From: Actinobacteria bacterium RBG_16_68_21
GTDB lineage: Bacteria > Actinomycetota > Acidimicrobiia > Spongiisociales > UBA11373
Length of the DNA: 64,000 nucleotides
Assembly (NCBI GenBank): GCA_001767695.1
Contig: MELR01000011.1
Location: 192-64,191, forward strand
Direction: 5' to 3'
In this document: positions 12,101 to 44,053 of the stretch, one piece after another
How the letters are laid out: every line of letters begins with the position of its first letter
Position numbering within the stretch: the stretch's first letter is position 1
Notes under the pieces: generated by a model
The model's input: the letters and a program-made list of their open reading frames with translations, nothing else
What the model was told of the DNA's origin: nothing
The model's database searches: none
Made by a program: the position numbers and the translations under genes

Positions 12101-12105
12101 ACGAC

Positions 12106-26283: not shown

Positions 26284-27314
26284 TGCTGTCTCCTGATCCC
26301 GACGGCCGCCAGCGCGGACCGTACGGTAGCGGCATCGACGCCCGTCACTCTCGGCCGGCCGATCGCTTCGAGCAACACCATGCGAAGGCCGGAGCGATCC
26401 CGCTTCTTGTCGAGGGACATCATCGACTCCACCCGGGCCGCATCGACGGGAGGAGCCGACACTTCCAACCCGAGCCGGGCGATCACCGCATCGTGCCGCC
26501 TCCGGTCGGAGAATCCGGTCACCAGCCGTGAGGCCTCGGCGGCGGCCACCATTCCCACGGCCACCGCCTCGCCGTGTGAGATCCCGGCGACGATCTCGAC
26601 GGCGTGCCCGACGGTATGGCCGTAGTTGAGGATCGCCCGCTCTCCGGTCTCGGTGAAGTCGCGGCCTACCACGTCCGCCTTGACCGTCAGCGCCCTACGC
26701 ACCACGGTCCCCAGGTCGGCTGCGAGCCCGTCGCGCTCATACAACGCCACCAGCTCCGGATCGCCGACAAACCCCGCCTTGAGCGCTTCCGCCGCCCCAT
26801 CGCGCAGCAGTGCCGGAGGCAACCCTTCAAGAACGCCGAGGTCGATGACCACACGGGCGGGATGCCGGAACGCACCCACCAGGTTCTTCGCCCCGACGTT
26901 CACCCCGGTCTTGCCGCCGATGGCCGCATCCACCGCGCCCACCAGCGTCGTGACCACGTAATGGACCTGCACTCCGCGTAGGTAGGTAGCCGCCACGAAT
27001 CCTGCCAGATCGGTGGTCGATCCCCCGCCGACGGCGATTATCAATCCGTCCCGGGTCATGGCCAGGGCGTTGAGTGCCCGCACGGTGGCGTCGACGGTCT
27101 CGAGAGTCTTGGCCGCCTCGCCGTCGGGAACGGCGATCCGCCCCACGGGTCGCTCGCCCAGGCCCTGCACTACTCGATCGGCGATCGCGGCCACCGCCGG
27201 CGAGGCGATCACGGCCACCAGCGGGGGATTCGCCGTGCCGAGCAGGGAGGGAGCCTCGAGCACCTCCCGCCCGATGACCACCGTGGTGGCGCCGGCTACG
27301 ACGAGAGGTTCCAC
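26280..27314 (-). CDS. aroB: 3-dehydroquinate synthase
   Basis: NAD-binding GGGSTTDLAGFVAATYLRG, metal site (GHTVGHAVE), LLRDGAAEALK. Confidence 0.9.
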   Translation of the reverse strand: MEPLVVAGATTVVIGREVLEAPSLLGTANPPLVAVIASPAVAAIADRVVQGLGERPVGRIAVPDGEAAKTLETVDATVRALNALAMTRDGLIIAVGGGSTTDLAGFVAATYLRGVQVHYVVTTLVGAVDAAIGGKTGVNVGAKNLVGAFRHPARVVIDLGVLEGLPPALLRDGAAEALKAGFVGDPELVALYERDGLAADLGTVVRRALTVKADVVGRDFTETGERAILNYGHTVGHAVEIVAGISHGEAVAVGMVAAAEASRLVTGFSDRRRHDAVIARLGLEVSAPPVDAARVESMMSLDKKRDRSGLRMVLLEAIGRPRVTGVDAATVRSALAAVGIRRQQ

Positions 27315-27796
27315 GCGTCCACCACTCGCTCGGCGACCGTCTCTTCCACATCCTCGGCGTCGACGACGGCGTGGGCCGCCGCCGCGTACCTCTCCGCTCG
27401 CTCCCGGTCGATCCTCAGCAGCGCCGCCTCCACCCCTTCGGCCAGCAGGGGACGTCCCTCACCCTTCCCGAGTCGTGCCGCCAGAGTCACCGGCGAGGCG
27501 TCGAGGTGGATCACCCGCCCGGTCTCCCGCATCAGGGTCACGGTGGCGTCGTCGAGCACTACGCCGCCACCGCACGCCACCACGGCGTCACGCCCGGCCA
27601 GGCGGGCCACCTCGGCGCGCTCCAGGGCGCGGAATCCCGGCTCATCTTCGGTGATCAGGGCGGCGAGCGATCTGCCGGAGCGCGCCTCGATCTCCCGATC
27701 GGTGTCGTACCACGGCAGGTCGAGGCGGGCGGCCACGAGGGGCGCCACGGCCGTCTTCCCGGAGCCCATCATCCCGATCAGCCACAACGTCGCCAC
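27296..27796 (-). CDS. aroK: shikimate kinase
   Basis: P-loop LIGMMGSGKTAV, YDTD motif, VVACGGGVV. Confidence 0.9.
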   Translation of the reverse strand: MATLWLIGMMGSGKTAVAPLVAARLDLPWYDTDREIEARSGRSLAALITEDEPGFRALERAEVARLAGRDAVVACGGGVVLDDATVTLMRETGRVIHLDASPVTLAARLGKGEGRPLLAEGVEAALLRIDRERAERYAAAAHAVVDAEDVEETVAERVVDAWNLSS

Positions 27797-28945
27797 TCAG
27801 AAGCTCGCGACTCGCCGTCGATACGCGACGACGGCTTGAGTGAAGTCGTCGACGGTGTCGCCACCGAACTTGCGGGCCAACTCGTCGGCGAGAACGAATG
27901 CAACCATCTGCTCGGCCACAACGCCGGCGGCGGGAACCGCGCAGACGTCGGACCGCTCCCGGAAGGCTTCTGCCGGCTCCTTGGTGATGACATCGACCGT
28001 GCCCAGCGGTCGCATCAGGGTCGACAGCGGCTTCATGGCCGCTCGCAGCCGCAGGGTCTGACCGGTGGTCATCCCCCCCTCCAGGCCGCCGGCGCGATCG
28101 GTTGGGCGGCTGAATCCGGCTTCGTCGTGGCGGATCTCGTCGTGGGCCGCCGACCCGAGCCGGGCCGCCGACCTCAGGCCGTCTCCGACCTCCACCGCCT
28201 TGATCGCCGGGATCGACATGAGGGCGCCGGCCAGTAACCCGTCGAGACGTCGATCCCAGTGGACGTGGCTCCCGACGCCGGGAGGCAGCCCGAAGGCGAG
28301 TACCTCGACCACTCCCCCCAACGTGTCGCGCTCGGATTGTGCTCGATCGATGGCGGCGATCATGTCCGTCTCCGCCGTCGGGTCGAAAGTTCGCACCGGC
28401 GAGGCGTCGATCGTCGCCAGGTCATCCGGCCCCGGCACGAGTTCCTTGGCGGCGACGCCCCCGATGGCGACGACGTGGCTGATCACCGTCACCCCTGCCG
28501 TCGCCAATAGGCCCTTGGCGAGGTACCCGACAACGGTGCGCGCCGCGGTCTCCCGCGCCGATGAGCGCTCGAGTATGTCCCGGGCATCATGGGTATCCGT
28601 CTTGATCATCCCGGAGAGATCGGCGTGACCGGGGCGCGGTGTGGTCAGTGGCCTGCGGGCGGAGCCGGGAGCGGTGCTCATCTCCTCCTCCCACTTCGGC
28701 CATTCGGTGTTCCTGATCACCACTGCCACCGGACCGCCGAGCGTCCGGCTGAAGCGCACCCCGCCGAGGATCTCCAGGTCGTCCTGTTCGATGAGCATCC
28801 TCCGGCCCCGGCCGTGACCGAGCCGGCGCCGCCGCAGTTCCGCGGCGATGCCGTCGATGTCCACGACGAGCCCCGCCGGCAAGCCCTCGACGACGGCCAC
28901 CAGTCCCGGGCCGTGGGATTCACCTGCGGTGAGGAAGCGAAGCAT
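27797..28945 (-). CDS. aroC: chorismate synthase
   Basis: MLRFLTAGESHGPGLVAVVEG..., GHGRGRRMLIEQDD, conserved FMN-binding motifs; 382 aa. Confidence 0.93.
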   Translation of the reverse strand: MLRFLTAGESHGPGLVAVVEGLPAGLVVDIDGIAAELRRRRLGHGRGRRMLIEQDDLEILGGVRFSRTLGGPVAVVIRNTEWPKWEEEMSTAPGSARRPLTTPRPGHADLSGMIKTDTHDARDILERSSARETAARTVVGYLAKGLLATAGVTVISHVVAIGGVAAKELVPGPDDLATIDASPVRTFDPTAETDMIAAIDRAQSERDTLGGVVEVLAFGLPPGVGSHVHWDRRLDGLLAGALMSIPAIKAVEVGDGLRSAARLGSAAHDEIRHDEAGFSRPTDRAGGLEGGMTTGQTLRLRAAMKPLSTLMRPLGTVDVITKEPAEAFRERSDVCAVPAAGVVAEQMVAFVLADELARKFGGDTVDDFTQAVVAYRRRVASF

Positions 28946-29000
28946 GGCTGAAGACTAGGTAAGCCTGCCGCGCAGAGCCCCCGTGGGGCGATCCGCAGTC

Positions 29001-29025
29001 GGCAATTGGCAATTGGCAATCGGCA
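29001..29025. repeat. Heptamer tandem repeat (locus B): (GGCAATT)2-GGCAATC-GGCA
   Basis: ggcaattggcaattggcaatcggca, between PilP-like gene stop (29090) and aroC start (28945). Confidence 0.8.
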
Positions 29026-29089
29026 TCCCCCGGAAGGGTCCGCCCGCAGACCCTCATTCAATCGCGCACCGCGGGTAGTGGGCCGCGGC

Positions 29090-29710
29090 CTATTTGAGGA
29101 TGCTCTGGCCGACCGCCAGGGTGAAGGCGCTCGAGCCGTAGGTGAACACGCCTCCGTTGTCGGTGAGGCTGACCACCTTGAAGTTGGTGGCGAAGGTGTC
29201 CCCTACCCCCACCGTGTAGGTCTGGCCATCGACCTCGACGACCGCCACCTTGCCACCGGCCTCGTCCCGCACCTCGAGCAACATCACCCTGATGCCGTCG
29301 GGGGTGTCGCCGCTCGTCGTCGTCGTGACACCCCCGGTCGTCGTGGTGGTGTCCCCACCCGTCGTCGTGGTGGTCTCCCCTCCGGCCGCGGTGGTCGTGG
29401 TCTCGCCACCGGCCACGGTGGTCGTCGTCTCCCCACCGGCCCCCGTCGTCGTCGTTTCCTCGGTGGGAGTGGTCACCAGGGGCTGGAAGGGATCGCGCGG
29501 CTGGGCGACCTGGTAGTCCCCGGTGAGCCCGATCGGGGCCCCCTGGGCTGCCGAGGTGTCCACCGCCCCGCTGTCCGGTGCGCCGGGGAGCGCGCTCTCG
29601 GCTCCCGTAAAGACCCCGGCCGACGCCATCAGCCATACCGACGCCACCGCGGTGCCCACGAGCAGCAGTGAAACGAATACCGACACCAGGGTTCGCTTGG
29701 CTCCGATCAT
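29090..29710 (-). CDS. type IV pilus assembly protein, PilP-like, with Thr-rich (GGETTTT)n linker
   Basis: From ATG at about 29710 (MIGAKRTLVSVFVSLLLVG, TM anchor); four-fold GGETTTTxA repeat; C-terminal beta-rich domain (GIRVMLLEVRDEAGGKVAVVEVDGQTYTVGVGDTF...); last gene of the pilM-pilN-pilO block. Confidence 0.55.
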   Translation of the reverse strand: MIGAKRTLVSVFVSLLLVGTAVASVWLMASAGVFTGAESALPGAPDSGAVDTSAAQGAPIGLTGDYQVAQPRDPFQPLVTTPTEETTTTGAGGETTTTVAGGETTTTAAGGETTTTTGGDTTTTTGGVTTTTSGDTPDGIRVMLLEVRDEAGGKVAVVEVDGQTYTVGVGDTFATNFKVVSLTDNGGVFTYGSSAFTLAVGQSILK

Positions 29711-29711
29711 C

Positions 29712-30350
29712 TCATGAGCCTCCCCGGTTCGCCTCGAACGACGAGTCCGTCGTCGGACCGGTCGTGGTCGTCGTGTCGCCTCCCAGCTCGCCGGCATCGA
29801 CGGTCGGCAGCAGGTCCGCCGTGGTGAAGAGCCGCATCTGGATGGTGGCCGCCAGAAGGGTGTTCCCCTCCTCGTCCTGGGTCGAGGACAACGACACTCC
29901 GTCGACCCGGACCAGGCGCTCCATGTCGTTCAGGCCGAAGAGGAACCCGAGCAGCTCGAAGAACTCCCCTTCCACCTGCGCACTGATGTCGATCCGGCGC
30001 AGCTCGGTGCCGTCCTCGGTAGGTGCGGGAACGGATGGCGACAGGGTCTGCAGGACCACTCCGGTCTCCTCGGCGAGGGAGTAGATCTGCTCGATGGCCT
30101 GATCGAGCAGCGGGCGGTCGGGGATGAGCGCGTTGAGCTTCCCCAGCGCCGCCTCGTACTCCACCCCGCGATCCCGGATCTCCTGGAGCTGTTGGATCTG
30201 CGCTCGCAGGCTGCCCTCGGTATCGACTGCGGCGCTCAACTCCCGGTGGGCGTCGTCGATCTTGGCGTTGCGCGGCGAGATCAACAAGAACCACCAGGCA
30301 GCCGTCACCGCCAGCGCGGCCAGCACGACGATCAGTCCCACGCGGCGCAT
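29712..30350 (-). CDS. pilO: type IV pilus assembly protein PilO
   Basis: 212 aa from ATG at 30350 (MRRVGLIVVLAALAVTAAWWFLLISPRNAKIDDAHRELSAAVDTEGSLRAQIQQLQ: TM plus coiled coil) then PilO-like periplasmic domain; TGATG junction with pilN. Confidence 0.7.
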   Translation of the reverse strand: MRRVGLIVVLAALAVTAAWWFLLISPRNAKIDDAHRELSAAVDTEGSLRAQIQQLQEIRDRGVEYEAALGKLNALIPDRPLLDQAIEQIYSLAEETGVVLQTLSPSVPAPTEDGTELRRIDISAQVEGEFFELLGFLFGLNDMERLVRVDGVSLSSTQDEEGNTLLAATIQMRLFTTADLLPTVDAGELGGDTTTTTGPTTDSSFEANRGGS

Positions 30351-30964
30351 CACGGCACCTCCGGAATGAGGGTGTCGGCGCGATTGGTGGTCGCCCCGCT
30401 GGTGAGCGCCGCCGTCGACGAGAAGGTCACCACATCCGTGTCGCCGATCGCCCCCTGGGACACCGTGCTCACCCAGGGGCCGGTCACGCCGCTGAATTGC
30501 CCGGAATCCAGCGCCCGCAGCCACTCCGAGACGTCGGGGTAGTCGAACCCGACGCCGCTGAAGGCCACCTGGCCCAGGACCCCGGGGATCGATGCGGAAG
30601 CGACGGTTCCCGAGAAGGTCTCCATCCAGACCCGTTGCGGCAGCAGCCTCGCCAGGTCGTTGAGGAAGATGCCCCAATCCACGTCTGAGGCGAGTGCCGC
30701 CCGAACCAGGTCCGCCTTTCCGTCGTACTCGATCTTCACCTCGTTGGCCGACGACAAGGTCGCCACGTCCCCTTCCAGCGACTGGTTGATGGCGGTCTGG
30801 GCATCCACGTCGGACTGTGCGGCCGCCACCTTGCCGTTCCAGTAGAAGACACCCACCACCAGCAGTGCCACATATACGCAGGCGGCGAACACACCAGCCC
30901 CGACGCGCCGTCGTCGGCTCCTCTCCTGGCCGACCTCCGGTGGCAGGAGATTGATTGGTCTCAT
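30350..30964 (-). CDS. pilN: type IV pilus assembly protein PilN
   Basis: MRPINLLPPEV (the INLLP signature of PilN), TM segment, periplasmic domain. Confidence 0.75.
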   Translation of the reverse strand: MRPINLLPPEVGQERSRRRRVGAGVFAACVYVALLVVGVFYWNGKVAAAQSDVDAQTAINQSLEGDVATLSSANEVKIEYDGKADLVRAALASDVDWGIFLNDLARLLPQRVWMETFSGTVASASIPGVLGQVAFSGVGFDYPDVSEWLRALDSGQFSGVTGPWVSTVSQGAIGDTDVVTFSSTAALTSGATTNRADTLIPEVP

Positions 30965-30973
30965 GACGGCGTC

Positions 30974-32077
30974 CTAGGCGACATGGGCGAATCGATTCGT
31001 CGGCGGAACGACGTACGAGCCCCACAGTCCCAGTCCGACCGCCGCCGGCAGGACCGGCTGGTACTCGAGCAACTGGCTTTCGGTCATCTGCACCCTGCCG
31101 ACGGTGACGTGGTCCAACACCCGGACCGGTTCGACCCGGGTGTTGAGCGAACGGCCAATGCGATTCGCCAGGTGCGGGAGGCGGGCGCCGTTTCCGGACA
31201 CGACGAGGCGGCCGAGAGCGTGCTCCCCGGCCTGGGTGAGGTAGTAGTTGACCGAGCCCCTGATCTCCTCGATCAAGGCGTCCCCGGTGCGGGTCAGGAT
31301 CCGGCGGGCGATCATCTCGGAGTCCTCGCCCTCGGGGAAACCCTGGGGAGCGACCCCCACCCGCCGTTTCAGCTCCTCGGCGTCTTCACGAGACAGCGAC
31401 ATCCCCGTCATCAGCGTCTCCGTGAAGTGCTCCCCGCCCGTGGGGATGATGCGCACGAATCGGGTGATCCCGCCGCGAACGATGGCGATCTGAGAGATGG
31501 ATGCCCCGATGTCGAGCAGCGCCTGGGGCCCGTCACCCCCGAGGAGGAGGTCCGCGCCAAAGGCGGCCCGTACCAATCCGAAGGCCTGCAGGTCGATGGA
31601 GAGGACGCTCAGGCCGGCACCGTCGGCGATCCTCACCAGACCGTCGACCATGTCACGCTGCGCCGCCACCACCAGGATCGAGAGCATCAGGTCCCCTTCC
31701 GGGGTGGTGAACTCCTCGAGAGGCACGAAGTCGAGCACGGCGTCGTCCACGGGAATGGGGATGGCGTCTTGGACCTGGAAGGGAAGCGCGTCGACGAGCT
31801 CGGATTCCTCCAGGTGGGGTACGTCCACCTGCCGGACGATCACCCGCTGGTTGGCCAGGCCGACCACGACCCGCTTCCGGGGCAGGTGGTGCCGCTTCCA
31901 CAGCGCAGCAACCGCCTCGGTGACCGCCCCCTCGTCGGCGACGTCGCCTGCCTCGACGACCCCGGGCGGAAGCGGCATCTCGGCGAACCGCCGCAGCACG
32001 GGCGCGCCCTTGCCGGCCTCGACGACGGCGGCGCGCACGGCATCAGAGCCAATGTCGAGACCTATCGCGACCGGCAT
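30974..32077 (-). CDS. pilM: type IV pilus assembly ATPase-fold protein PilM
   Basis: Actin-like fold: MPVAIGLDIGSDAVRAAVVE..., ...VVVGLANQRVIVRQVDVP..., LSVLSIDLQAFGLVRA; internal ATG at about 32077 has a better RBS (GCGAGG) than the GTG at 32131. Confidence 0.8.
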   Translation of the reverse strand: MPVAIGLDIGSDAVRAAVVEAGKGAPVLRRFAEMPLPPGVVEAGDVADEGAVTEAVAALWKRHHLPRKRVVVGLANQRVIVRQVDVPHLEESELVDALPFQVQDAIPIPVDDAVLDFVPLEEFTTPEGDLMLSILVVAAQRDMVDGLVRIADGAGLSVLSIDLQAFGLVRAAFGADLLLGGDGPQALLDIGASISQIAIVRGGITRFVRIIPTGGEHFTETLMTGMSLSREDAEELKRRVGVAPQGFPEGEDSEMIARRILTRTGDALIEEIRGSVNYYLTQAGEHALGRLVVSGNGARLPHLANRIGRSLNTRVEPVRVLDHVTVGRVQMTESQLLEYQPVLPAAVGLGLWGSYVVPPTNRFAHVA

Positions 32078-32244
32078 GTCGTGCCTCGCGAGCGGGTCAC
32101 TGGCGCCATATGACGCTCCTGTTCTACTCACAGACGAGTAGTTACGCCTGTGTCATCACGAGGCTACACAGGGCATCGCGCCGGACCAAGGATTCTGAAC
32201 GCGCCGCGCCACCGGATCGCGCGCTTTGCGCGGTGAGGCTTCCC

Positions 32245-33024
32245 TCAGCCCAGATACCACGAGGCGATCGCCTCGCCGGCAGCGATCGCCACCCAGGCCC
32301 CCACCACCAGGGCCGGCCCGAAAGGGATCGTGTCACGGCGACCGGCGCGGCGAGTCGCCATCAGCACGATCGCCGACAGACCGCCGAGCACGAAGGCGGC
32401 GAACACCGCCACCGCCAGTGAGCCCCACGAGCGGTAGGCGGCGAAGACGCCGAGGAGGAAGGCCAGTTTCACGTCGCCCATCCCGAAGCCTCCGCGGGCG
32501 ACCAGGGCGATCACCAGGAGCCCTCCGAAGTAGGCGGCGCCGCCGGCGAGCGCCTGACCCAGTCGCCCGCTCGTTCCCTCGAGGAGCGCTCCTGTGGAGA
32601 GCAAGACCACCGCAACCGCGGTGCCCGGGTAGAGGATCAGATTGGGCAGCCGCTTTTCATCGAGGTCGACGACCGCGAGCACGAGCGTGACCGCGGCGAA
32701 CCAGAGGTAGGCGGGGAGCACCCAGGAGAGGCCGATGACGGCTGCCGTGATCCCGAAGAGCGCTCCCGAGGCCGCCTCCACCAGCGGGTACCTGACCGAG
32801 ATCGGTTGGCCACACGCCCGGCAGCGGCCCCGCAACAACACCCAGGAGAGCACCGGGATGTTGTCGACCGCACGGATCTCGGCGCGGCAGTTGGGGCAGG
32901 CGGATGGCGGCCTCACGATCGAGATGCCCGCCGGGACGCGGTAGGCCACCACGTTGAGGAAACTCCCGATCAACACCCCAGCGAAGGCGGCGACGGCGAC
33001 GGTCACCAATCCCTTCCCGTGCAC
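32245..33024 (-). CDS. pilD: prepilin peptidase (A24 family) PilD
   Basis: N-terminal Cys-x-x-Cys...Cys-x-x-Cys zinc motif (PSACPNCRAEI...RGRCRACGQPI) and polytopic membrane domain with peptidase A24 Asp motifs (GGFGMGDVKLAFL). Confidence 0.88.
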   Translation of the reverse strand: MHGKGLVTVAVAAFAGVLIGSFLNVVAYRVPAGISIVRPPSACPNCRAEIRAVDNIPVLSWVLLRGRCRACGQPISVRYPLVEAASGALFGITAAVIGLSWVLPAYLWFAAVTLVLAVVDLDEKRLPNLILYPGTAVAVVLLSTGALLEGTSGRLGQALAGGAAYFGGLLVIALVARGGFGMGDVKLAFLLGVFAAYRSWGSLAVAVFAAFVLGGLSAIVLMATRRAGRRDTIPFGPALVVGAWVAIAAGEAIASWYLG

Positions 33025-33446
33025 ACTGCGAGTGTCATCTCTGCCTCGGTCTCTTCCCTACAGGTGAAGTGGCCCCGAGCCCCTCCCGCCACGGCGAGGC
33101 GGGCGCCGAACCAGGTTCCGCTGCGGGAGCGAGCGTACAGCAGCACCTGAGCGGAGTCTCCCGGCTTGACGTCGGCGACGACCACCCGCACCGAGGTATC
33201 CGCAGATCCGAGGTCGATGCCGGGGGCGATTTCGGTCAGCCGGCCGGCGTCGGTGCTGAACGCACCATCGGCGACCATGAGGCCCATCTCGGCGGTGGCG
33301 GCGTGGCTGAGACTCGACGTGGCCCGGGCGTCGTTGGCCCGCGACCGGAAGCCCTCGAGGATCGCCACGAGGATCGCAACGATGGCGAGGACGACCGCCA
33401 GCTCCACCAGCGTGTAACCGCCGTCGTGATTCCGGGGCATGGTCAC
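33003..33446 (-). CDS. type IV pilin (second pilin gene)
   Basis: Class III signal: MTMPRNHDGG|YTLVELAVVLAIVAIL (G-1, E+5); 147 aa; RBS GAGGAG just after the upstream hairpin. Confidence 0.8.
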   Translation of the reverse strand: MTMPRNHDGGYTLVELAVVLAIVAILVAILEGFRSRANDARATSSLSHAATAEMGLMVADGAFSTDAGRLTEIAPGIDLGSADTSVRVVVADVKPGDSAQVLLYARSRSGTWFGARLAVAGGARGHFTCREETEAEMTLAVCTGRDW

Positions 33447-33457
33447 TCCTCATGTGA

Positions 33458-33489
33458 GAAGGGGGCGGGTCTTACGATCCGCCCCCTTC
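33458..33489 (-). terminator. GC-rich stem-loop between pilA and the second pilin gene (partial terminator/attenuator)
   Basis: GAAGGGGGCGG-(10 nt loop)-CCGCCCCCUUC, 11-bp perfect stem, 24 nt after pilA stop and followed at once by the RBS/ATG of the next pilin gene. Confidence 0.55.
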
Positions 33490-33512
33490 CCGATTGGTGA
33501 TCGACCGTGGAC

Positions 33513-33974
33513 TTACCAGCCGCCCTGGGCGTAGGCCCCAGGAGCAGCGTCGGGACAGGTGACGCTGAGGTCAGTGGCTCCGTACCACGTTCCAAGTGTC
33601 GAGCTCTCCCAGATGGCGAACGTGTTGCCGGAAGCGGCGGTCCGGGTCAGGCACACGGTGTCCGAGGTGGTGGCGTTCAACTGCAGCGCCACACCGCTCG
33701 CCGGGTTGGCGTTGATCACCGCGTTCGGTTCGAATGCCGTGATGTCCGCGGCGGTCTCGGTGTAGTCGCCGTTGTCCAGCCAGTACGCCTTCTCGGAGAG
33801 AAGGACGTTGCGGATATCGCTCTGGGCAGAACGATCCTGCGCCGACTTGCGGAACCCGAGGAACGAGGGGATGGCAATGGCGATGAGAACTGCAATGATC
33901 ATCACCACGACCATCAGCTCGATGAGCGTGAACCCTTCGTCGCCCTTAAGGCCACGTCGGATGGTCTTCATCAT
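33513..33974 (-). CDS. pilA: type IVa major pilin PilA
   Basis: 153 aa from ATG ATG at 33974 with GGAGG RBS: MMKTIRRGLKGDEG|FTLIELMVVVMIIAVLIAIAIPSF, canonical prepilin leader/N-methyl-Phe/E5 N-terminus; C-terminal Cys pair (C..C). Confidence 0.88.
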   Translation of the reverse strand: MMKTIRRGLKGDEGFTLIELMVVVMIIAVLIAIAIPSFLGFRKSAQDRSAQSDIRNVLLSEKAYWLDNGDYTETAADITAFEPNAVINANPASGVALQLNATTSDTVCLTRTAASGNTFAIWESSTLGTWYGATDLSVTCPDAAPGAYAQGGW

Positions 33975-34104
33975 TGTTCGAGAACCTCCTAGTGGTTTCT
34001 CTCGCGTGGGACGCAAAGTGCGACCCGTCGTGGTTATCGGCTTGAAGCCGCAGGGGCCTTGAGGGCTATTTCGCGATCTGGTCCGCGGCCGAAAGCTGAA
34101 CACT

Positions 34105-34153
34105 GACCTTCGACCTTGGACCTTGGACCTTGGACCTTGGACCTTGGACCTTG
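34105..34153. repeat. Heptamer tandem repeat (locus C, part 1): ACCTTCG + (ACCTTGG)6; on the pilA-coding strand (CCAAGGT)6
   Basis: accttcgaccttggaccttggaccttggaccttggaccttggaccttgg, perfect 7-nt period, about 130-180 nt upstream of the pilA start. Confidence 0.9.
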
Positions 34154-34200
34154 GAGAGACGTTCGCGAACGGTCCGGAGTCCCGAGGCGCATCGCCCGAC

Positions 34201-34248
34201 AGCGGGAGAGCGGCCAGCGGAAAGCGGGCAGCCGGCAGCGGGCAGCGA
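34201..34248. repeat. Heptamer-periodic array (locus C, part 2): AGCGGGA GAGCGGC CAGCGGA AAGCGGG CAGCCGG CAGCGGG CAGCGAC
   Basis: Seven in-register degenerate heptamers (consensus cAGCGGG) abutting the pilC stop codon (34249). Confidence 0.75.
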
Positions 34249-35475
34249 CTAGTTGTTGATCAGGTTGGCGATGTTGAACATCGGCAGGTAGAGGGAGATG
34301 AGGATCCCGCCGACGGCGACGCCCATCACGATGATCAAGATCGGTTCGATCAACGAGGTGAGCGCGTTCACGGTGTCATCGACCTCGTTGTCGTAGAAGT
34401 CGGCCACCTTGGCCAGCATGGCATCGAGGGCGCCGGTCTCCTCCCCGACGGCCATCATGTGGGTGACCATGGGCGGGAAGACCTCGTGCCGCCCGAGTGG
34501 TCCGGCGAGTGACTCGCCCCGGCGGACTGACGCCTGGACGTCGGTCACCGCCCGGCTGACCAGGGCATTGCCCGAGGTCTGCGCCACGATGTCCAGCGCC
34601 TGCAGCACCGGTACGCCGGTCCGGCTCAGCACCGAGAAGGTCCTGGCGAACCGGCTGATCGCCACCTTCTGCACCAGAGAGCCGAAGACGGGGGCCCTCA
34701 ACTTGAGGGTGTCCCATCGCAGCTTCCCGGTGTCGGTTCGCTTCCAGCGCCGGAAGACGATCACTCCCCCGAGCAGTGACCCGAGCACGACCCACCAGAA
34801 CTTGGTGATGGCGCCCGAGATGTTGATCAGTGCCTGGGTGGGGAGAGGCAGGGTCCCCCCGAGGTCCTCGTACATCTTCTGGAAGATGGGGACGACGAAC
34901 AGCAACATCCCGGAGACGATGCACACGATCAGCACCAGCACCACCACCGGGTAGGCCATCGCCGACTTCACCTTCGACCGTAGCCGAACACCGGCTTCGA
35001 GCGTGTCGGCCAGCCGCACCAGAGTCTCGTCGAGCGCCCCGCCCACCTCCCCGGCGCGCACCATCGACACGTACAGATGGTTGAACACGTCGGGATGCTG
35101 CTCGAGGGCCGCGGAAAGGCTGTTCCCCTGCTCGACGTTGGTGCGAACCTCGCCGATGATGCCCGCCAACGCCGGGTTCTCGTTCTGTTCCTCGAGGATG
35201 GCCAGCGCCCGGATCAGGGTGAGGCCGGAGTTGACCATCGTTGCCAGCTGCCGGCTGAAGATGGCGACTTCCTTGAGCTTCACCTTCTTCTTGAATCCTG
35301 GGATCGTGATCTCTCTGTCGAGACCGGACACCCGCTTGGCGTCGACGCGCAGAGCCGTATAGCCCTTCTCGCGCAATGCTCCGGCGACCGATGCCGGCGA
35401 GGAGCCCTCCATCGACCCGCTGTGGACGTTGCCGGATCGATCGCGCGCCTTGTACTCGTAGATTGCGGTGCTCAT
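34249..35475 (-). CDS. pilC: type IV pilus inner-membrane platform protein PilC
   Basis: 408 aa; MSTAIYEYKARDRSGNVHSGSMEG..., two GspF/PilC repeats with three TM segments. Confidence 0.88.
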   Translation of the reverse strand: MSTAIYEYKARDRSGNVHSGSMEGSSPASVAGALREKGYTALRVDAKRVSGLDREITIPGFKKKVKLKEVAIFSRQLATMVNSGLTLIRALAILEEQNENPALAGIIGEVRTNVEQGNSLSAALEQHPDVFNHLYVSMVRAGEVGGALDETLVRLADTLEAGVRLRSKVKSAMAYPVVVLVLIVCIVSGMLLFVVPIFQKMYEDLGGTLPLPTQALINISGAITKFWWVVLGSLLGGVIVFRRWKRTDTGKLRWDTLKLRAPVFGSLVQKVAISRFARTFSVLSRTGVPVLQALDIVAQTSGNALVSRAVTDVQASVRRGESLAGPLGRHEVFPPMVTHMMAVGEETGALDAMLAKVADFYDNEVDDTVNALTSLIEPILIIVMGVAVGGILISLYLPMFNIANLINN

Positions 35476-37091
35476 CGCCCCTGACCTCCCAGAAGGTTCG
35501 TCAGCTCTTCGACGTTCTGCGCCCGTTCCATGGCGAGGCGAACATCGATCCTGCCGGAGCGCACGAGTCCTGCCAGGGACTTGTCCATCGTCTGCATGCC
35601 GTGGCGTCCCCCCGACTGGATCGTGCTGCGGATCTGGTGGACCTTGCCTTCGCGGATCAGGTTGCGAACGGCAGGGATCGCCACCATCACCTCGACGGCG
35701 GCCGCCCGCCCCTGGCCGTCGACGGTGGGCAGCAACTGCTGAGTCAGCACACCCTGGAGGGACTCGGCCAGTTGGACCCGCACCTGCTGCTGCTGGTGGG
35801 GAGGAAAGACGTCGATGATCCGCTCAATGGCCCCGGGGGCATCCTGGGTGTGCAGAGTGGCGAAGACCAGGTGTCCCGTCTCTGCGGCAGTCAGGGTGGT
35901 CGCCATCGTCTCCAGGTCCCGCATCTCGCCGACCAGAATCACATCGGGATCCTGGCGGAGGGCATGCCGCAACGCCGTGGAGAACGCGCTCGTGTCGGCA
36001 CCCACCTCGCGTTGGTTGACGATCGAGCTCTTGTGTCTGTGCATGAATTCGATCGGGTCTTCGATCGTCATGACGTGGACCGCCCGGTGAGTGTTGATCT
36101 CGTCCACCAACGAGGCCAGGGTCGTCGACTTGCCGGTACCGGTGGCTCCGGTGACGAGCACGAGACCTCGCGGCAGGTAGGCGAAATCGCGAACCACCGC
36201 CGGCATTCCGAGTTCGGCGAGCGACTGGACTTCATTGGGGATGGCTCGCATCACCGCGCCGACTGCTCCCCTCTGAAAGAACACATTGACACGGAACCTT
36301 CCCGCGCCGGGAAGAGGATGTGAACAATCCAGTTCGAGGTTGTTCTCGAGCTCCTCGCGTTGACGCGCCGAGAGGATCGCGTAGACGAGACCTCGCAGCG
36401 GCCCCGGCATCAGCGTGTCGTAGCCCTCGATGGGGAGCAGGGCCCCGTGCACCCGCATCAGCGGCGGCAAGCCGGCGCTCAGATGGAGATCGGAGCCGTG
36501 GGCTTCGAGCAGGATCTTCAGCAGCTCGTTGATGTGATACCCCGATTCGCCGACGGCCTCCGCAGGGCGGGAAGACGGCACAGGGGGTCCGTCGAGAACC
36601 GCGTGGAGCTGCTTGGTCCCCGGGGTGGGCACCGCAGTCCCCCGAGCGCTCGAGTAGGTGCGGCGCACGACGTCGTCGAGTGAGTCACGCGGAGCGAGGG
36701 CCACCGAGATCTCCCCACCTGCCGCCGCGGCGACGCGACGGCGCCGTTCGACGTCCAGGGGGTCGGCCATCGCCACGACCAGGTTCCTCGACTCCATGCG
36801 CAGTGGAAGGACGACCTCGGCGACGGCCACCGCCGGATCCAATCGGGAGAGCACGCCGGGATCGGGAGCGGCGCCCAGAACGGGATCGTAGAACTCGACG
36901 CCGATCCCTTCGGCGATCACACGGAGGACATCGGCGCGATGCATCGCCCCGGTCTGCAGCAGCTCTGTGATGGGATCGGTACCTCGGCTGCCGGCGAGTT
37001 GCTCGGCTTCGGCAAGGGCGTCGGTGGGCAGCAGGTGCCCATCGACGAGGCGTTGACCGATCTGGCGGATCAGCTGATCGATGGGCATCAG
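35472..37091 (-). CDS. PilT-like retraction-type ATPase with N-terminal GspE_N/MshEN-like extension
   Basis: C-terminal about 350 aa is PilT-type (Walker A GATGTGKST, Asp box, Walker B DVILVGEMRD, His box ATLHT); N-terminal about 190 aa (MPIDQLIRQIGQRLVDGHLLPTDALAEAEQ...LRMESRNLVVAMADPLD) looks like the T2SS-E N-terminal domain; ATG at about 37088 overlaps pilB stop. Confidence 0.75.
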   Translation of the reverse strand: MMPIDQLIRQIGQRLVDGHLLPTDALAEAEQLAGSRGTDPITELLQTGAMHRADVLRVIAEGIGVEFYDPVLGAAPDPGVLSRLDPAVAVAEVVLPLRMESRNLVVAMADPLDVERRRRVAAAAGGEISVALAPRDSLDDVVRRTYSSARGTAVPTPGTKQLHAVLDGPPVPSSRPAEAVGESGYHINELLKILLEAHGSDLHLSAGLPPLMRVHGALLPIEGYDTLMPGPLRGLVYAILSARQREELENNLELDCSHPLPGAGRFRVNVFFQRGAVGAVMRAIPNEVQSLAELGMPAVVRDFAYLPRGLVLVTGATGTGKSTTLASLVDEINTHRAVHVMTIEDPIEFMHRHKSSIVNQREVGADTSAFSTALRHALRQDPDVILVGEMRDLETMATTLTAAETGHLVFATLHTQDAPGAIERIIDVFPPHQQQQVRVQLAESLQGVLTQQLLPTVDGQGRAAAVEVMVAIPAVRNLIREGKVHQIRSTIQSGGRHGMQTMDKSLAGLVRSGRIDVRLAMERAQNVEELTNLLGGQGR

Positions 37092-38776
37092 ACCACCACC
37101 CTGAGAATCTCCTCGAGCGTCGTGAGCCCCAGCCTGACCTTCTCCATGCCGTCCTGGCGAAGGGTCTTCATGCCTTGGCTCACCGCAACCCGCTTGATCT
37201 CGTCTGAGGGTCGGTGCTCGACGATCATCCGCTGCATCTCCTCGCTTACCAGCAGGGTCTCGTTCACCGCGAGCCGTCCCCGGTAGCCGGTGCTCGTGCA
37301 CGCCTTGCATCCGACCGCCCGGTAGATCGTCATCGGGCCATCATCGGGATCGAAACCCATTTGCTGGACGATCTCGGGGGACGCGATCCGGGCCTCCCTG
37401 CAGCGATCGCAGATCTTGCGCGCCAGACGCTGGGCGAGGACGGAGTCGAGGGCCGACGACACCAGGTAGGGCTCTACGCCCATGTCGATCAGTCGCCCGA
37501 ATGCGGAGGACGAGTCGTTGGTGTGCAGCGTGCTCAGCACCAGGTGCCCGGTCAGTGCAGCCTCGACGGCGATCTTGGCCGTCTCGGTGTCACGCACCTC
37601 GCCGATGAGCACGATGTCGGGGTCCGAGCGGAGAATCGCCTTGAGGACCGTTGCGAACTGGAGTCCCGCCTTGCGGTTCACCTGCACCTGGGTGACACCC
37701 TTGAGGCGATACTCGACCGGATCCTCGACGGTGATGATGTTCTTGTCGGGTGAATTGAGGATGTTGAGTGCCGAGTACAGCGTGGTCGTCTTGCCGGATC
37801 CGGTCGGGCCGGTGACCAGGATCGCCCCGTACGGCTTGCTGTACGACTGCTCGAATCGGGCAAGGGCGGAGGGGAGGAATCCGAGCTGAGCGAGGTCGAG
37901 GACCGCGTCCTCCTTGTCGAGGATCCGCAGCACGACCTTCTCACCGTAGATGTTGGGGAGGGTGGCCACCCGAAGGTCGATCTGCCGGCCCGACACCCGC
38001 AGGCTCACGCGCCCATCCTGTGGCACCCGGCGCTCGGCGATGTCGAGATCCGCCATGATCTTGAGCCTGCTGACGACCGCTCCGGACACCGATCGCGGTG
38101 TACTCATGATCTCGTGGAGCACGCCGTCGATCCGGAACCGCACCCGCAGGTCGCGTTCGCCGGGTTCGACGTGAAGGTCGGAGGCCCGCTCGTTGACGGC
38201 GCGGCTGATCAGCGTGTTCACCAGCTTGACGATTGGGGCCTCCTCGACCGCCAACTCGATGTTGCTCAGATCCTCCTGGGCAATGTCCCCGCCCACGAGG
38301 TCCGCCAGGTCGGCCACCGAGTCGTCGTAACGGCCCTGGCGACGGATGGCATCATCGATGTCCCCCCGGGTGGCGATCTTGGGGATGATGCGCAGTCCGG
38401 TGATGGCCCGGATGTCGTCGATGACGAGCACGTTGGCCGGATCCGCCATCGCCACCACGAGCGCGTCATCATCGAACTTGACTGGAATGACGCCGTAGCG
38501 CCGCGCCAGCGACTCGGGAATCAGAGCGGCCGCGCCGGGGTCGATCGTGGTCTCATTGAGGTTGATGAACTCGACCCCGCTGTGCGTGGCGATCGCCTGG
38601 ACCAGGTCGAGTTCCTTGACCATGCCTTCCGCGACGAGGATGCGAGTCAGCGTCTCCCCGGTCTCTGCCTGGCGGGCGCGAGCGCGCGCCATATCTCCCG
38701 TCGACACCAGACCGGAATCTTCGAGGACCGTGCCGATGTGATCGCGCTCTGACACCCGAACTCCCGTGCGGAACAC
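37088..38776 (-). CDS. pilB: type IV pilus assembly (extension) ATPase PilB
   Basis: 562 aa; GspE_N-type N-domain (VVAMADPANVLVIDDI), Walker A GPTGSGKTTTLYS, Asp/His boxes, tetracysteine motif (CDRC...CKAC). Confidence 0.88.
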   Translation of the reverse strand: MFRTGVRVSERDHIGTVLEDSGLVSTGDMARARARQAETGETLTRILVAEGMVKELDLVQAIATHSGVEFINLNETTIDPGAAALIPESLARRYGVIPVKFDDDALVVAMADPANVLVIDDIRAITGLRIIPKIATRGDIDDAIRRQGRYDDSVADLADLVGGDIAQEDLSNIELAVEEAPIVKLVNTLISRAVNERASDLHVEPGERDLRVRFRIDGVLHEIMSTPRSVSGAVVSRLKIMADLDIAERRVPQDGRVSLRVSGRQIDLRVATLPNIYGEKVVLRILDKEDAVLDLAQLGFLPSALARFEQSYSKPYGAILVTGPTGSGKTTTLYSALNILNSPDKNIITVEDPVEYRLKGVTQVQVNRKAGLQFATVLKAILRSDPDIVLIGEVRDTETAKIAVEAALTGHLVLSTLHTNDSSSAFGRLIDMGVEPYLVSSALDSVLAQRLARKICDRCREARIASPEIVQQMGFDPDDGPMTIYRAVGCKACTSTGYRGRLAVNETLLVSEEMQRMIVEHRPSDEIKRVAVSQGMKTLRQDGMEKVRLGLTTLEEILRVVV

Positions 38777-38910
38777 CGCACCTCGGAACCGTGCTTATCA
38801 CGGGGTTTGTCGGCATGACGGAGGCTGCTCTTGAGTGGTGTCCCCGGCCAGGTTCCGCCGAGGTGCCCGGAAGGAACCGCAGCACCGCCTCGGGAAAGGA
38901 CCGGTCGCGC

Positions 38911-39675
38911 CTAGGCCCGGGCCGCCTCCCGCATGACCTCGACGGGTGCCTCCACGCCCGTCCAGATGCGGAACGATTCGGCCGCTTGAGCGACGAGCAG
39001 GTCTATGCCGTCGACGCAGTTGATCCCGAGACGACGGGCGGCGGCACATGCCGGCGTGGCCTCCGCGGCGTAGGGCAGGTCGATCAGCCCGCCGGCGGCG
39101 GCGAGGACGGCCTCGGGGAGCCGCTCCCCGCGCATTCCGATCGGGGTCGCGTTGACGACCAAGGCCCCGGGCACGGCCATGCCCCAGGCCACCGCCCGGG
39201 CCGAGGGACACAGTTGTCGGGCATGACGGGCGGCGGCATCGGGGCGGCGGGCGGCGACCCACACGCGGTCAGCGGAGAACGCGACCAGCGCCGCCGCCGC
39301 CGCTCCCCCGGCGCCGAGCACCAGCACCGTTCTCTCCCCGGGCCTTCCGGTGGCGACCGAGCGGAGGGCGGCCACGTCGGTGTTCCATCCGCAGAGCTCT
39401 CCATCCCGGATCGCCAGGGTGTTGGTCGCCCGCCCGGCGGCGGCATCCGCATCGAGTCGGTCGCACAGCCGTGCCGCCAGACGCTTGTGGGGCATGGTGA
39501 CGTTCGCCCCGTCGAGTGCCCCGGAACGGAGTTCTCCGACGGCGTCGGCGACACCGCCGGCGTCGACCCGGCGAGCCAGGTACTCCCCGGCGATGCCGAG
39601 ATGGGCGAGAGCCGCGGAATGAATCGCCGGAGAACGGGAGTGGGCGACGGGGTTGCCGAGCAACACCAGTCTCAT
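38911..39675 (-). CDS. aroE: shikimate dehydrogenase
   Basis: GNPVAHSRSP, NVTMPHK, NT(D) and GAGGAA Rossmann motif. Confidence 0.88.
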   Translation of the reverse strand: MRLVLLGNPVAHSRSPAIHSAALAHLGIAGEYLARRVDAGGVADAVGELRSGALDGANVTMPHKRLAARLCDRLDADAAAGRATNTLAIRDGELCGWNTDVAALRSVATGRPGERTVLVLGAGGAAAAALVAFSADRVWVAARRPDAAARHARQLCPSARAVAWGMAVPGALVVNATPIGMRGERLPEAVLAAAGGLIDLPYAAEATPACAAARRLGINCVDGIDLLVAQAAESFRIWTGVEAPVEVMREAARA

Positions 39676-40778
39676 GAAGTCGCTCCCGCCTCCTCCTGGA
39701 GCCGGAGGAACTCATCGAAGTCGGCCGTAAAGGTGAACTTGCCGGTGTCGTCGGTCGTGAGGAAATACAAGTAGTCGCTCTCCGCGGGCGCGGCGGCAGC
39801 CTCGAGCGAGGCGATGCGCACCCCGGCGATCGGCGTGGGCGGAAGACCGGTGTGAAGGTAGGTGTTGTAAGGCGATTCGATGGACAGGTCGTCGAGGGTG
39901 AGCCCACCATCGGGAAGCCCGCCGAGCGCGTAGACCACGGTGGCGTCGAACTGGAGAGCCATGCCGAGATCGAGGCGGTTGTAGATCACACTCGCCACCA
40001 GGGGCCGATCCTCGTCGAGGACCGCCTCGCGTTCCACCAGCGAGGCGATGATCACCCCGTCGTAGGGGGTGAGCCCCCGATCGGTCAGATAGGTCCAGTC
40101 GATGGCCCCGACGCGTTCCTCGGCGGTCCGAGCCATAAGGGCGAGTATCTCGGCGGCATCGGCGTCCGTGGAGAACTCATAGGTGTCGGGGAACAGCAGC
40201 CCCTCCCAATCCTGGAGCTGGCGGGGCGGATCGGGCATCAAGGACGAGGCGACCGATCCGTCGAGAAGAGCCGCCGCCAGATCCTCGAAGGAGATCCCGG
40301 TCTGGCGTGATATCGAGTCGAGCATCTTCCCGACGCTGAGGCCCTCGATCACGGTGAGGCGGTAGGTGCGGTCCGGGGGTCCGGCCACCAGGATCGCCAG
40401 CACCGCGGCCGGGTCCATTCCGGTCTCCAACTCATAGGTGCCCGCCTGGAGCCGGTCGCTGGCATTGGCGTCACGCACCTCCTTGTCGAAGCCGGCGGCA
40501 GAAGCCACCACGCCTGCGGAAACGAGGTCGCGAGCGATCTGGGACGCCGGGGTCCCGGCGAGAACTTCGAAGTCGACGGGGGTGCCGGGAGCAACCGTGG
40601 AGCTGTCCGGCGAGGCGATCACGTCGTTGACCGCCGAGGCGAGCCACTTGACGCCGAGGTACGCCATGCCGAAGAAAACGATCACCAGCCCGAGCACCGC
40701 GAACCACCGCATGCCCCGATTGGGACCCGACGGCTCGTCGGGACGTTCCGGCCGATAGCGCTCCACCTCGATGCTCAT
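39672..40778 (-). CDS. mltG: endolytic murein transglycosylase MltG (YceG family)
   Basis: N-terminal TM anchor, YceG-like domain with conserved catalytic Glu region (LVASVIYNRL) and ...NTYLHTGLPPTPI.... Confidence 0.82.
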   Translation of the reverse strand: MSIEVERYRPERPDEPSGPNRGMRWFAVLGLVIVFFGMAYLGVKWLASAVNDVIASPDSSTVAPGTPVDFEVLAGTPASQIARDLVSAGVVASAAGFDKEVRDANASDRLQAGTYELETGMDPAAVLAILVAGPPDRTYRLTVIEGLSVGKMLDSISRQTGISFEDLAAALLDGSVASSLMPDPPRQLQDWEGLLFPDTYEFSTDADAAEILALMARTAEERVGAIDWTYLTDRGLTPYDGVIIASLVEREAVLDEDRPLVASVIYNRLDLGMALQFDATVVYALGGLPDGGLTLDDLSIESPYNTYLHTGLPPTPIAGVRIASLEAAAAPAESDYLYFLTTDDTGKFTFTADFDEFLRLQEEAGATS

Positions 40779-41179
40779 GATCCGTCCAGGTACGACTGCA
40801 GAAAGACCGCGGCAGCAACGCTGTCCCGGGATCGCCTCCTGCGATCCCGACGAGCCCCCGCCTCGATCATGGCTCTTTCGGCGATGACGGTGCTGTACCG
40901 CTCATCCACAAGGTCCGTCGGCAACCCCGTGGCGGCGCGCACCTCCTCGGCGAAGCGGCGCGCCTCCTGGGCCGCCGCCCCTTCCGAGCCGTCGAGGCCG
41001 ACGGGAAGACCCACCACGATCCGTTCGACGGCGAGATCGGCCACCAGGGTTCCGATCTGCTCGATGAGCCCGGCACCTGCCGCGATCACCGAGTGGGGAT
41101 GCGCGGTGAGGCCGAGTGAGTCGCTCACCGCGACACCCACCCTGGTGGAACCGTGATCGAGGGCGAGCACTCGCCCCAC
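40775..41179 (-). CDS. ruvX: Holliday-junction resolvase-like RNase YqgF/RuvX
   Basis: VGRVLALDHGSTRVGVAVSD... (RuvX N-terminus), about 134 aa from GTG at about 41179, next to alaS stop. Confidence 0.8.
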   Translation of the reverse strand: MGRVLALDHGSTRVGVAVSDSLGLTAHPHSVIAAGAGLIEQIGTLVADLAVERIVVGLPVGLDGSEGAAAQEARRFAEEVRAATGLPTDLVDERYSTVIAERAMIEAGARRDRRRRSRDSVAAAVFLQSYLDGS

Positions 41180-41180
41180 G

Positions 41181-43808
<2,628 letters not shown>

Positions 43809-43906
43809 TGCAGGGTTCGAGGGTGGCGCATCGTGGGAAGGGTAGTTGGACCCGGGAGAGCGGCACGCGCGACGTCTGATGCGGTCGGGTCGGCCGCGGC
43901 CGGCGG

Positions 43907-44053
43907 CGATGAGCGATGGGAGATGGGCGTGACGCGATTAGCAGCTGGCGATTAGCGATGCGCAATTGGCAATTAGCCGCCTGCCCGGCGCGACTCTTGC
44001 GGGTTGCGGGCAGCGGGCAGCGGGTTGCGGGTTGCGGGCAGCGGGCAGCGGGT
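43907..44053. repeat. 147-bp array of about 21 in-register degenerate heptamers (locus D): GCGATGG GAGATGG GCGTGAC GCGATTA GCAGCTG GCGATTA GCGATGC GCAATTG GCAATTA ... (TTGCGGG/CAGCGGG)8
   Basis: Strict 7-nt register across the whole alaS-rarA spacer; ends 2 nt before the rarA stop codon. Confidence 0.85.

Follow-up and report, generated by a model that had tools for sequence, protein, structure and literature searches.

The base of the type IV pilus machine takes up extension motors and retraction motors in exchange for one another, in a way that is not yet understood. The locus described here, in which a retraction motor carries a domain of extension motors, bears on this question. The window, that is, the whole stretch of 64,000 nucleotides analysed here, comes from Actinobacteria bacterium RBG_16_68_21 (assembly GCA_001767695.1, contig MELR01000011.1, positions 192 to 64,191 of the forward strand) and contains, between pilB and pilC, a gene for a PilT-type ATPase preceded by an N-terminal domain of the MshEN type (also called T2SSE_N or N1). 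An initial annotation, made from the letters of the DNA, had seen in this domain a hint that cyclic diguanosine monophosphate (c-di-GMP) controls both pilus ATPases. Our best overall explanation, which we hold with about even confidence, is that the gene encodes a genuine PilT of a type IVa pilus system in a monoderm, Acidimicrobiia-like actinomycetotal bacterium, in which the N1 fold has been kept, the ligand site would have been lost and the domain would act as an adaptor.

Identity of the PilT core

The gene and the parts of its core were assigned as follows.

35472..37088, minus strand: complete MshEN-PilT gene, 538 amino acids plus stop (open reading frame and full-length homologues)
35475..36533, minus strand: PilT core, N2-type domain plus ATPase domain, residues 186-538 (TIGR01420 and PilT structures)
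36123..36149, minus strand: Walker A GATGTGKST, residues 314-322 (translation; invariant in the family)
35916..35945, minus strand: Walker B region DVILVGEMRD, residues 382-391 (translation; invariant or near-invariant in the family)
35649..35672, minus strand: AVRNLIRE, the PilT-specific AIRNLIRE-type motif, residues 473-480 (translation)

We compared the protein with family models and with known structures. With the TIGR01420 model (pilT_fam), whose cut-off is 319.1 bits, the protein scored 476.6 bits, matching residues 186-527 over profile positions 2-342 of 343. The PilB model TIGR02538 (cut-off 675.65) gave 151.8 bits, and the equivalog models for PilB and GspE stayed at about 150 bits, with cut-offs above 630. 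PilT structures from Geobacter, Aquifex, Pseudomonas and Thermus matched residues 185-535 with 355-392 bits, compared with about 115-124 bits for PilB structures. Residues 186-538 resemble PilT of characterised type IVa pili (P. aeruginosa 3JVV, Geobacter 6OJX and 5ZFQ, Aquifex 2EWV) at 50-60% identity. They share with them the Walker A and B motifs, the Asp and His boxes (EDPIE, residues 343-347, and TGHLVFATLHT, residues 404-414, by translation), the AIRNLIRE-type motif, the lack of zinc-binding cysteines and the place of the gene between pilB and pilC; the protein has one Cys only and thus no PilB-type zinc-binding tetracysteine. Across 55 homologues these five motifs were invariant or nearly so; within AVRNLIRE, R475, N476 and R479 were invariant and I478 and E480 nearly invariant. 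The assignment to the PilT type that had been made from the Walker A, Walker B and His box motifs therefore holds, and the TIGR01420 score above cut-off agrees with it. A second PilB was also considered as an identity for the protein and was rejected by the TIGR02538 and TIGR01420 scores and by the motifs. The 64-kb window contained no second PilT-like gene. Sequence comparison thus makes it very probable that the protein is a PilT-type retraction ATPase of the type IVa pilus with an N1 domain in front.

The N-terminal extension is a folded N1 domain

Characterised PilTs measure about 345-390 amino acids and start at the N2-type domain, whereas the protein described here has 185 additional residues in front of it, consisting of the N1 domain and a linker. 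The extension noticed at first, then put at about 190 residues, is real and conserved: a domain of 150 residues followed by the linker. Its parts are the following.

36903..37082, minus strand: subdomain 1, residues 3-62, four-helix bundle with degenerate ligand contacts (models, Foldseek matches to 5HTL and 8PDK, motif analysis)
36636..36899, minus strand: subdomain 2, residues 64-151, alpha/beta T2SSE_N (GspE-N1-like) module (PF05157, family conservation, Foldseek)
36534..36635, minus strand: flexible linker rich in Pro, Ala and Ser, residues 152-185 (model confidence and alignment gaps)

The Pfam family MshEN (PF05157) scored 51.3 bits (E = 1.2e-13; cut-off 23.1) over residues 75-150. The likeness to T2SSE_N/MshEN that had been noticed from the sequence is thus above the gathering threshold, and the modelled fold agrees with it. 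In a phmmer search of PDB sequences, residues 9-152 matched the PilF GSPII domains and the M. xanthus PilB N-terminus, and the MshEN region of NfrB aligned with residues 8-151. BLASTP aligned 135 residues of the domain with the N-terminus of the neighbouring PilB (31% identity, E = 1e-11).

We modelled the protein with AlphaFold2 from a 55-sequence alignment. Helices at residues 3-16, 22-35, 39-46 and 51-62 formed a four-helix bundle, the homologue of the c-di-GMP-binding half of MshEN, and were followed by the alpha/beta module to residue 151. In the model of the whole protein the predicted local distance difference test (pLDDT) was 83-96 for both parts of the N-domain, which was followed by a disordered linker and then the PilT core. 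The linker had a pLDDT of about 33 at residues 151-180 and a gap fraction of 0.26, and it was the least conserved part of the family alignment. This monomer model had a predicted template modelling score (pTM) of 0.59 and did not pack the N-domain confidently against the core; residues 1-155 modelled alone reached a pLDDT of 93.1 and a pTM of 0.80. When the latter model was compared with the PDB by Foldseek, the top 20 matches were all N1 domains, with probability 1.0 and template modelling (TM) scores of 0.5-0.63. They included MshE-N with c-di-GMP (5HTL), PilF GSPII-B, -A and -C (8PDK, 6EJF), XpsE-N (2D27, 2D28) and the Xanthomonas PilB-N/PilZ structure 7LKM. Subdomain 2 carries the signature LPLR...VAMADPLD, in which A88, A106 and P110 were invariant and L94, P95 and D109 near-invariant.

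The extension is therefore a folded MshEN/T2SSE_N (N1) domain, homologous to that of the neighbouring PilB. It has the same two-subdomain fold as the N1 domains of extension ATPases (MshE 5HTL; PilF GSPII-A, -B and -C, 8PDK, 9G1W and 6EJF; the PilBs of M. xanthus and C. perfringens; XpsE 2D27; PilB-N 7LKM). Identity to these is 20-25%, the Foldseek probability is 1.0 and the T2SSE_N signature LP...ADP-L-D is common to both. The position is also the same, at the N-terminus of an ATPase of the PilT/VirB11 superfamily. The difference lies in the core that follows, which is of the retraction type here and of the extension type in PilB, GspE, MshE and PilF.

Replacement of the c-di-GMP contact residues

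The MshEN receptor motif (Wang et al. 2016) consists of two 24-residue copies of RLGxx(L/V/I)(L/V/I)xxG(L/V/I)(L/V/I)xxxxLxxxLxxQ separated by a 5-residue spacer. Its register in the MshEN-PilT protein follows from the alignments with PilF and with PilB. Here motif I is QIGQRLVDGHLLPTDALAEAEQLA (QIG..LV..HLL....L...E..A), the spacer is GSRGT, and motif II is DPITELLQTGAMHRADVLRVIAEG (DPI..LL..GAM....V...I..G). Of the relaxed motif positions, 7 of 11 are kept in each copy, and the hydrophobic positions of both are largely retained. Neither the strict nor the relaxed motif occurred in the window protein or in any of 116 family members; the RLGxxL motif that had been proposed as a check on the receptor claim is thus absent throughout this set. 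In the sampled loci, by contrast, 17 of the 51 N-domains of the PilB type had at least one relaxed motif.

The replacements concern the contact columns. Among the 116 sequences, R9 was replaced by Q in 73 and Q32 by A in 100, R38 by P, H, D or N, and G40 by A, L, P or V and never retained as Gly; Q61 was mostly R or H. Structural columns were kept (L14 in 105, V15 in 97, L43 in 97, G47 in 104 and V49 in 100). The fold is kept, with both subdomains and the hydrophobic core retained and the c-di-GMP contact residues replaced. NF053729, the NCBIfam model of the c-di-GMP motif (cut-off 38 bits), did not match the window protein even with E values up to 10. The tandem motif, degenerate at its Arg, Gly and Gln contacts, is closer to that of the non-binding PilF GSPII-A than to those of MshE or GSPII-B. 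According to PMC11731258, GSPII-A has one near-perfect motif and one that is 45% conserved, and does not bind c-di-GMP. Because the motif is absent, the contacts are replaced, NF053729 gives no match and GSPII-A provides a precedent, canonical c-di-GMP binding by the N-domain is probably absent.

Proposed role of the domain

We propose that the N-domain is a tethered adaptor through which the PilT hexamer would dock or be positioned at the pilus machine, on its cytoplasmic side, at PilM and/or PilC; alternatively, it may bind another protein partner. The extension and retraction motors would then use homologous adaptors and either compete for one platform or take turns on it. Among homologues, GspE-N1 binds the cytoplasmic domain of GspL, and GspL is a PilM homologue. 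The Foldseek matches of the N-domain model included 2BH1 (EpsE-N1 with EpsL) and 4PHT, entries for the binding of GspL by GspE N1 domains. The likeness of the alpha/beta half to EpsE-N1 in 2BH1 was weak (TM score 0.62 on the target). The cluster that holds the MshEN-PilT gene also encodes PilM, PilN, PilO and PilC, which we count in favour of docking. The review PMC11656802 presumes a contact between the N1 domain of PilB and components of the platform, and describes the function of N1/MshEN domains beyond c-di-GMP binding as poorly understood. A docking role for the N-domain is a tentative proposal that we hold with somewhat less than even confidence.

Several points weigh against this reading of the domain, some against docking and others against a lost ligand site. 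Plain PilTs work without an N1 domain, so docking as such needs none. In conservation the helix bundle matches the alpha/beta module (the mean frequency of the top residue in the family alignment is 0.50 and 0.51, respectively); it is under selection for something. Some distant MshEN-PilTs have near-canonical motifs. One of them with 51% identity, in an Actinomycetes metagenome-assembled genome (MAG; L001, ~7986..9572, plus strand), has RLGEFLVD... and SLSKMLLAEG...Q in its N-domain (9 of 11 positions in each) and scored 32.8 bits with NF053729. Sensing of c-di-GMP may be ancestral, kept in some lineages and lost in the family of the window protein. According to PMC11731258, PilF GSPII-B binds c-di-GMP without the arginines, and its first-position Arg is dispensable; deviation from the motif alone is therefore no proof of lost binding. 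A noncanonical binding mode or a different nucleotide is conceivable for the N-domain.

The conservation of the helix bundle keeps alive the main alternative, namely that the N-domain is a regulatory module for another input. It could respond to a nucleotide or small molecule in a remodelled groove or to a lineage-specific partner, or it could inhibit or gate the PilT hexamer until this is engaged. Apart from the contact positions, the family has kept residues of its own, with L55 invariant, A59, G47 and V49 nearly so, and a V-R-R-x-D-x-L-R consensus. These are mostly hydrophobics of the buried type, and maintenance of the fold could suffice to explain them. N1 domains bind proteins elsewhere, as in 2BH1 and in 7LKM, the X. 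citri PilB N-terminus bound to PilZ; however, the cluster shows standard pil genes only and no candidate gene for a ligand or partner. The long flexible linker would permit contacts in cis, yet the monomer model, with its pTM of 0.59 and disordered linker, places the N-domain in no confident contact with the core. On balance we regard a regulatory role of this kind as unlikely.

Docking remains the reading that we prefer. A PilT that has an N1 domain and a decayed ligand site separates the two possible roles of the domain; if N1 still matters functionally in such a protein, a docking or positioning role would be common to it and PilB. The window protein, as a natural case of this kind, would offer a tractable test system for the N1 domains of PilB and PilT. 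The arrangement is mechanistically suggestive for motor exchange, with the function of the N-domain put forward as a proposal. In a wider form, which we consider rather doubtful as a whole, MshEN-PilTs would be a distinct class of retraction motor, so far undescribed, with an N1 adaptor captured from an extension ATPase. In these monoderm Actinomycetota PilB and PilT would then share a docking site at PilM/PilC, motor exchange would be direct competition, and the bundle could tune it through a signal other than c-di-GMP.

The c-di-GMP receptor alternative

In the model to which the initial annotation points, the N-domain would be a working MshEN-type receptor through which c-di-GMP, for example from a REC-GGDEF protein encoded in the window, would directly control the retraction motor and perhaps PilB too. 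True homology and the fold shared with the c-di-GMP-binding 5HTL and 8PDK speak for such a receptor, as do the largely kept hydrophobic motif positions, the dispensable Arg of GSPII-B and the score of the L001 N-domain. In addition, 21 of 33 family N-domains gave weak matches to NF053729. The best of these reached E = 2.6e-8 and about 33 bits, and none of the family members came up to 38 bits. Against the receptor stand the absence of even the relaxed motif from all 116 sequences, the family-wide replacement of G40, Q32 and Q61, the missing NF053729 match of the window protein, and the fact that GSPII-A does not bind although its motif II is less degenerate than that of the MshEN-PilT (PMC11731258). 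The PilB of the window has the motifs HIG...Q and TLT...H, with 8 of 11 relaxed positions in each, and scored 32.6 bits with NF053729, itself below threshold.

15635..16564, minus strand: REC-GGDEF-like response regulator, 309 amino acids (phmmer, Pfam)

The REC-GGDEF gene does exist at these coordinates; its proposed c-di-GMP link to the pilus ATPases finds no support. It lies 19 kb from the pilus genes in an unrelated neighbourhood, beyond both the pilus cluster and the aro genes that flank it. We located it by phmmer with CheY, PleD and WspR query sequences and then confirmed it with Pfam, where Response_reg scored 97.8 bits and GGDEF (PF00990) 47.5 bits over profile positions 5-106 of 161 only. 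Its signature is GGDDF instead of GG(D/E)EF, so that it has neither the diguanylate cyclase signature nor a complete domain, and diguanylate cyclase activity is doubtful for this protein. The pattern G[GAS][DE]EF was absent from all six frames of the window, and looser patterns on chosen open reading frames were unhelpful. With PilB below the NF053729 cut-off and the REC-GGDEF gene distant and of the GGDDF type, control of both pilus ATPases by c-di-GMP is not borne out, and a receptor function of the PilT N-domain is quite improbable.

Gene start and extent

The minus-strand frame that ends at 35472 is open back to 37310 in the open reading frames of the window. The pilT start is the ATG at 37088..37086, which has one base (A) in common with the pilB stop TGA at 37090..37088 (GTC TGATG CCC), and a purine-rich stretch, GGGTGGTGG, precedes it. 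Of the coordinates first given for the gene, 35472-37091, the lower end is correct and the upper end lies 3 nt too far, where the codon is CTG. At its other end the pilT stop TGA (35474..35472) overlaps the pilC ATG by 4 nt (ATGA). These overlapping stop and start codons suggest translational coupling of pilB, pilT and pilC.

A deposited record of RBG_16_68_21 (P0008, 353 amino acids) is 100% identical to the core and its best database match; it begins MNELL..., at residue 186. The codon at this position is ATC, and ATG, GTG and TTG are absent nearby. The gene model of this record, 35475..36533, thereby misses the entire N1 domain, 555 nt of coding sequence that is conserved. Starts trimmed by homology in this way hide the N1 domain.

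The length of the homologues agrees with the long form. Among the 120 best, 113 had 500-560 amino acids, and those with a reported BLASTP alignment covered 91-100% of the query at 54-83% identity. Nearly all full-length homologues carried both PF05157 and PF00437 in precomputed Pfam annotation, and more than 110 homologues, mostly from Acidimicrobiia, spanned the N-terminal extension. The G+C fraction at codon positions 1, 2 and 3 was 0.81, 0.47 and 0.79 in the N-domain and 0.71, 0.42 and 0.81 in the core, so that the composition of the N-domain is of the coding type. In a relative with 63% identity (L081, a contig of 273 kb) the same gene of 538 amino acids is present and starts 4 nt inside pilB.

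The pilB overlap, the homologue coverage, the codon-position composition, the L081 gene and the fold together establish the extension as real and the long start as correct, against the internal start of the deposited record, which would remove the domain. The explanation that the extension is an annotation artefact, with a true protein of 353 residues and the upstream 555 nt a decayed remnant or an untranslated spacer, has this public record in its favour, but is effectively refuted by its ATC start, by the coding-type second and third codon positions, by retention of the extension across more than 100 homologues at 98-100% coverage and identities down to 54%, by a predicted fold at pLDDT 93 and by the beginning of the extension at the end of pilB in both the window and L081.

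Distribution and origin of the architecture

We surveyed a library of 50%-identity cluster representatives, in which 150 PilT-type proteins were listed. An MshEN N-domain was present in 16, another extension of at least 100 amino acids in 56, and 78 were plain. The other long extensions were nearly all proline-rich and without a Pfam domain, with the exceptions of HEAT_2 (2) and DUF4388 (2). GTDB species genomes yielded matches dominated by plain PilTs of many phyla, which give presence and no reliable frequency; among the matches listed, the MshEN-PilT occurred in at least four loci. The hosts were an 'Actinomycetes' MAG (L001), an Egicoccus MAG (L002) and two Acidimicrobiaceae MAGs (L017 and L011, the latter with a split gene). 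Also among the matches listed, the N-domain was absent from other Actinomycetota PilTs (e.g., Cellulomonas, Actinoplanes, Leifsonia, Solirubrobacterales, Gaiellaceae, Rubrobacter and Coriobacteriia) and from the PilTs of other phyla. Judged from these sequence surveys, the architecture is lineage-typical and no one-off, being the rule among the many PilTs of an Acidimicrobiia-like group. The remark that a retraction motor with this domain is unusual thus holds against the literature and does not hold in sequence space.

Reviews and primary papers place N1/MshEN domains on PilB, GspE, MshE and PilF, and also on NfrB. Our literature search, which was incomplete and yields absence of evidence only, found no description of such a domain on a PilT. 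The PilT core and the N1 domain are each already known, and their combination on a retraction motor is, within the literature searched, apparently undescribed. In databases these proteins are named only 'PilT/PilU family type 4a pilus ATPase', and their Pfam architecture is indistinguishable from that of PilB. The combination of MshEN and T2SSE in Pfam is consequently unfit for calling PilB or for counting c-di-GMP receptors in Actinomycetota.

We constructed neighbour-joining trees. In trees of PilT cores with midpoint rooting, the MshEN-positive PilTs fell into 11 pure clades, and a single capture from PilB was not separated from several. A tree of N-domains placed 28 of 37 PilT N-domains in one bipartition along with the sequence B_L011_17, at pairwise identities of 18-29%, which are too low for neighbour joining. 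B_L011_17 was labelled as PilB-type and is in fact the split PilT N-domain reading frame of L011. In that locus, the N1 frame (7391..8005) and the PilT-core frame (7917..9056), both on the plus strand, overlap in different frames, probably through a frameshift in a long-read assembly; a second PilT-like gene of L011 lies at 2349..3542. The adjacent pilB was considered as the source of a recent gene conversion; this was rejected, since the N-domain and that of the cognate PilB are 23-29% identical in four genomes.

The pilus cluster and its surroundings

The remaining genes of the cluster were assigned as follows.

37088..38776, minus strand: pilB, extension ATPase, 562 amino acids (Pfam T2SSE 474 bits, MshEN 80.2 bits)
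34249..35475, minus strand: pilC, platform protein (Pfam T2SSF, two copies)
29712..34103, minus strand: rest of the type IVa pilus cluster beyond pilB-pilT-pilC (Pfam), comprising the genes below
33513..34103, minus strand: pilin (Pfam N_methyl)
33003..33446, minus strand: second pilin-like gene (Pfam N_methyl)
32245..33024, minus strand: prepilin peptidase (Pfam A24_N_bact/Peptidase_A24)
30974..32131, minus strand: pilM (Pfam PilM_2)
30350..30964, minus strand: pilN (Pfam PilN)
29712..29714 (stop), minus strand: pilO, starting at the internal Met of MRRVGL... in the open reading frame 29712..31025 (Pfam PilO)

The adjacent PilB had been credited with an N-domain of its own, and its MshEN score bears this out. 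It scored 624 bits with TIGR02538, below the cut-off of 675.65, and has the zinc motif CxxC...CxxC (CDRC...CKAC). The two pilin-type genes encode class III signal peptides (G/FTLIE and G/YTLVE), and the second pilin-like gene, at 33003..33446, shares about 20 nt with that of the prepilin peptidase. The pilB...pilO cluster lies between aroE and aroC on the minus strand, at about 25000..44000 of the window, inside the conserved actinobacterial block alaS-ruvX-mltG-aroE...aroC-aroK-aroB-efp. L081 has the same arrangement in the same housekeeping frame at 1..21617, in the order alaS-ruvX-mltG-aroE-pilB-pilT-pilC-pilin-pilD-pilM-pilN-pilO-(unknown)-aroC-aroK-aroB-pepP-efp.

Other PilT and PilB variants in relatives

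The only extension of a PilT that we found described (PMC4390875) is the proline-rich N-terminal extension of cyanobacterial PilT2. PilT2 and the extended PilTs of other Actinomycetota, like the protein described here, consist of a PilT core, a lineage-specific addition and a low-complexity linker. Their additions are disordered or receiver domains, whereas that of the MshEN-PilT is the N1 domain of an extension motor. In four MAGs of the Coriobacteriia type and others (L029, L031, L033 and L034), the PilT core was preceded, at about 7300..8000, by a REC domain and a Pro/Ala-rich linker, and Response_reg scored 57 bits in L029 and 54 bits in L033; these are fusions of a response regulator with PilT. 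In Cellulomonas, Kineosporiaceae and Actinomycetes MAGs (L007, L014 and L023), a stretch that would encode about 200 amino acids in frame, Pro/Ala-rich and apparently disordered, lay between pilB and the PilT core.

Two representatives, P0121 (1024 amino acids) and P0127 (942 amino acids), contained two tandem PilT cores. Five others of about 720-740 amino acids (P0122, P0123, P0125, P0126 and P0130) showed two matched stretches in the representative search and may likewise be tandem PilTs. All of these may represent PilT-PilT/PilU fusions or gene calls that were merged. Finally, a Rubrobacter sp. MAG (L020, 1724..4999, plus strand) encoded a PilB-type ATPase with three MshEN/GSPII domains (199.9 bits in Pfam for the three) and a REC domain (Response_reg, 80.7 bits) between the second and the third; according to PMC11731258, the triple GSPII arrangement is reported only in Deinococcus-Thermus.

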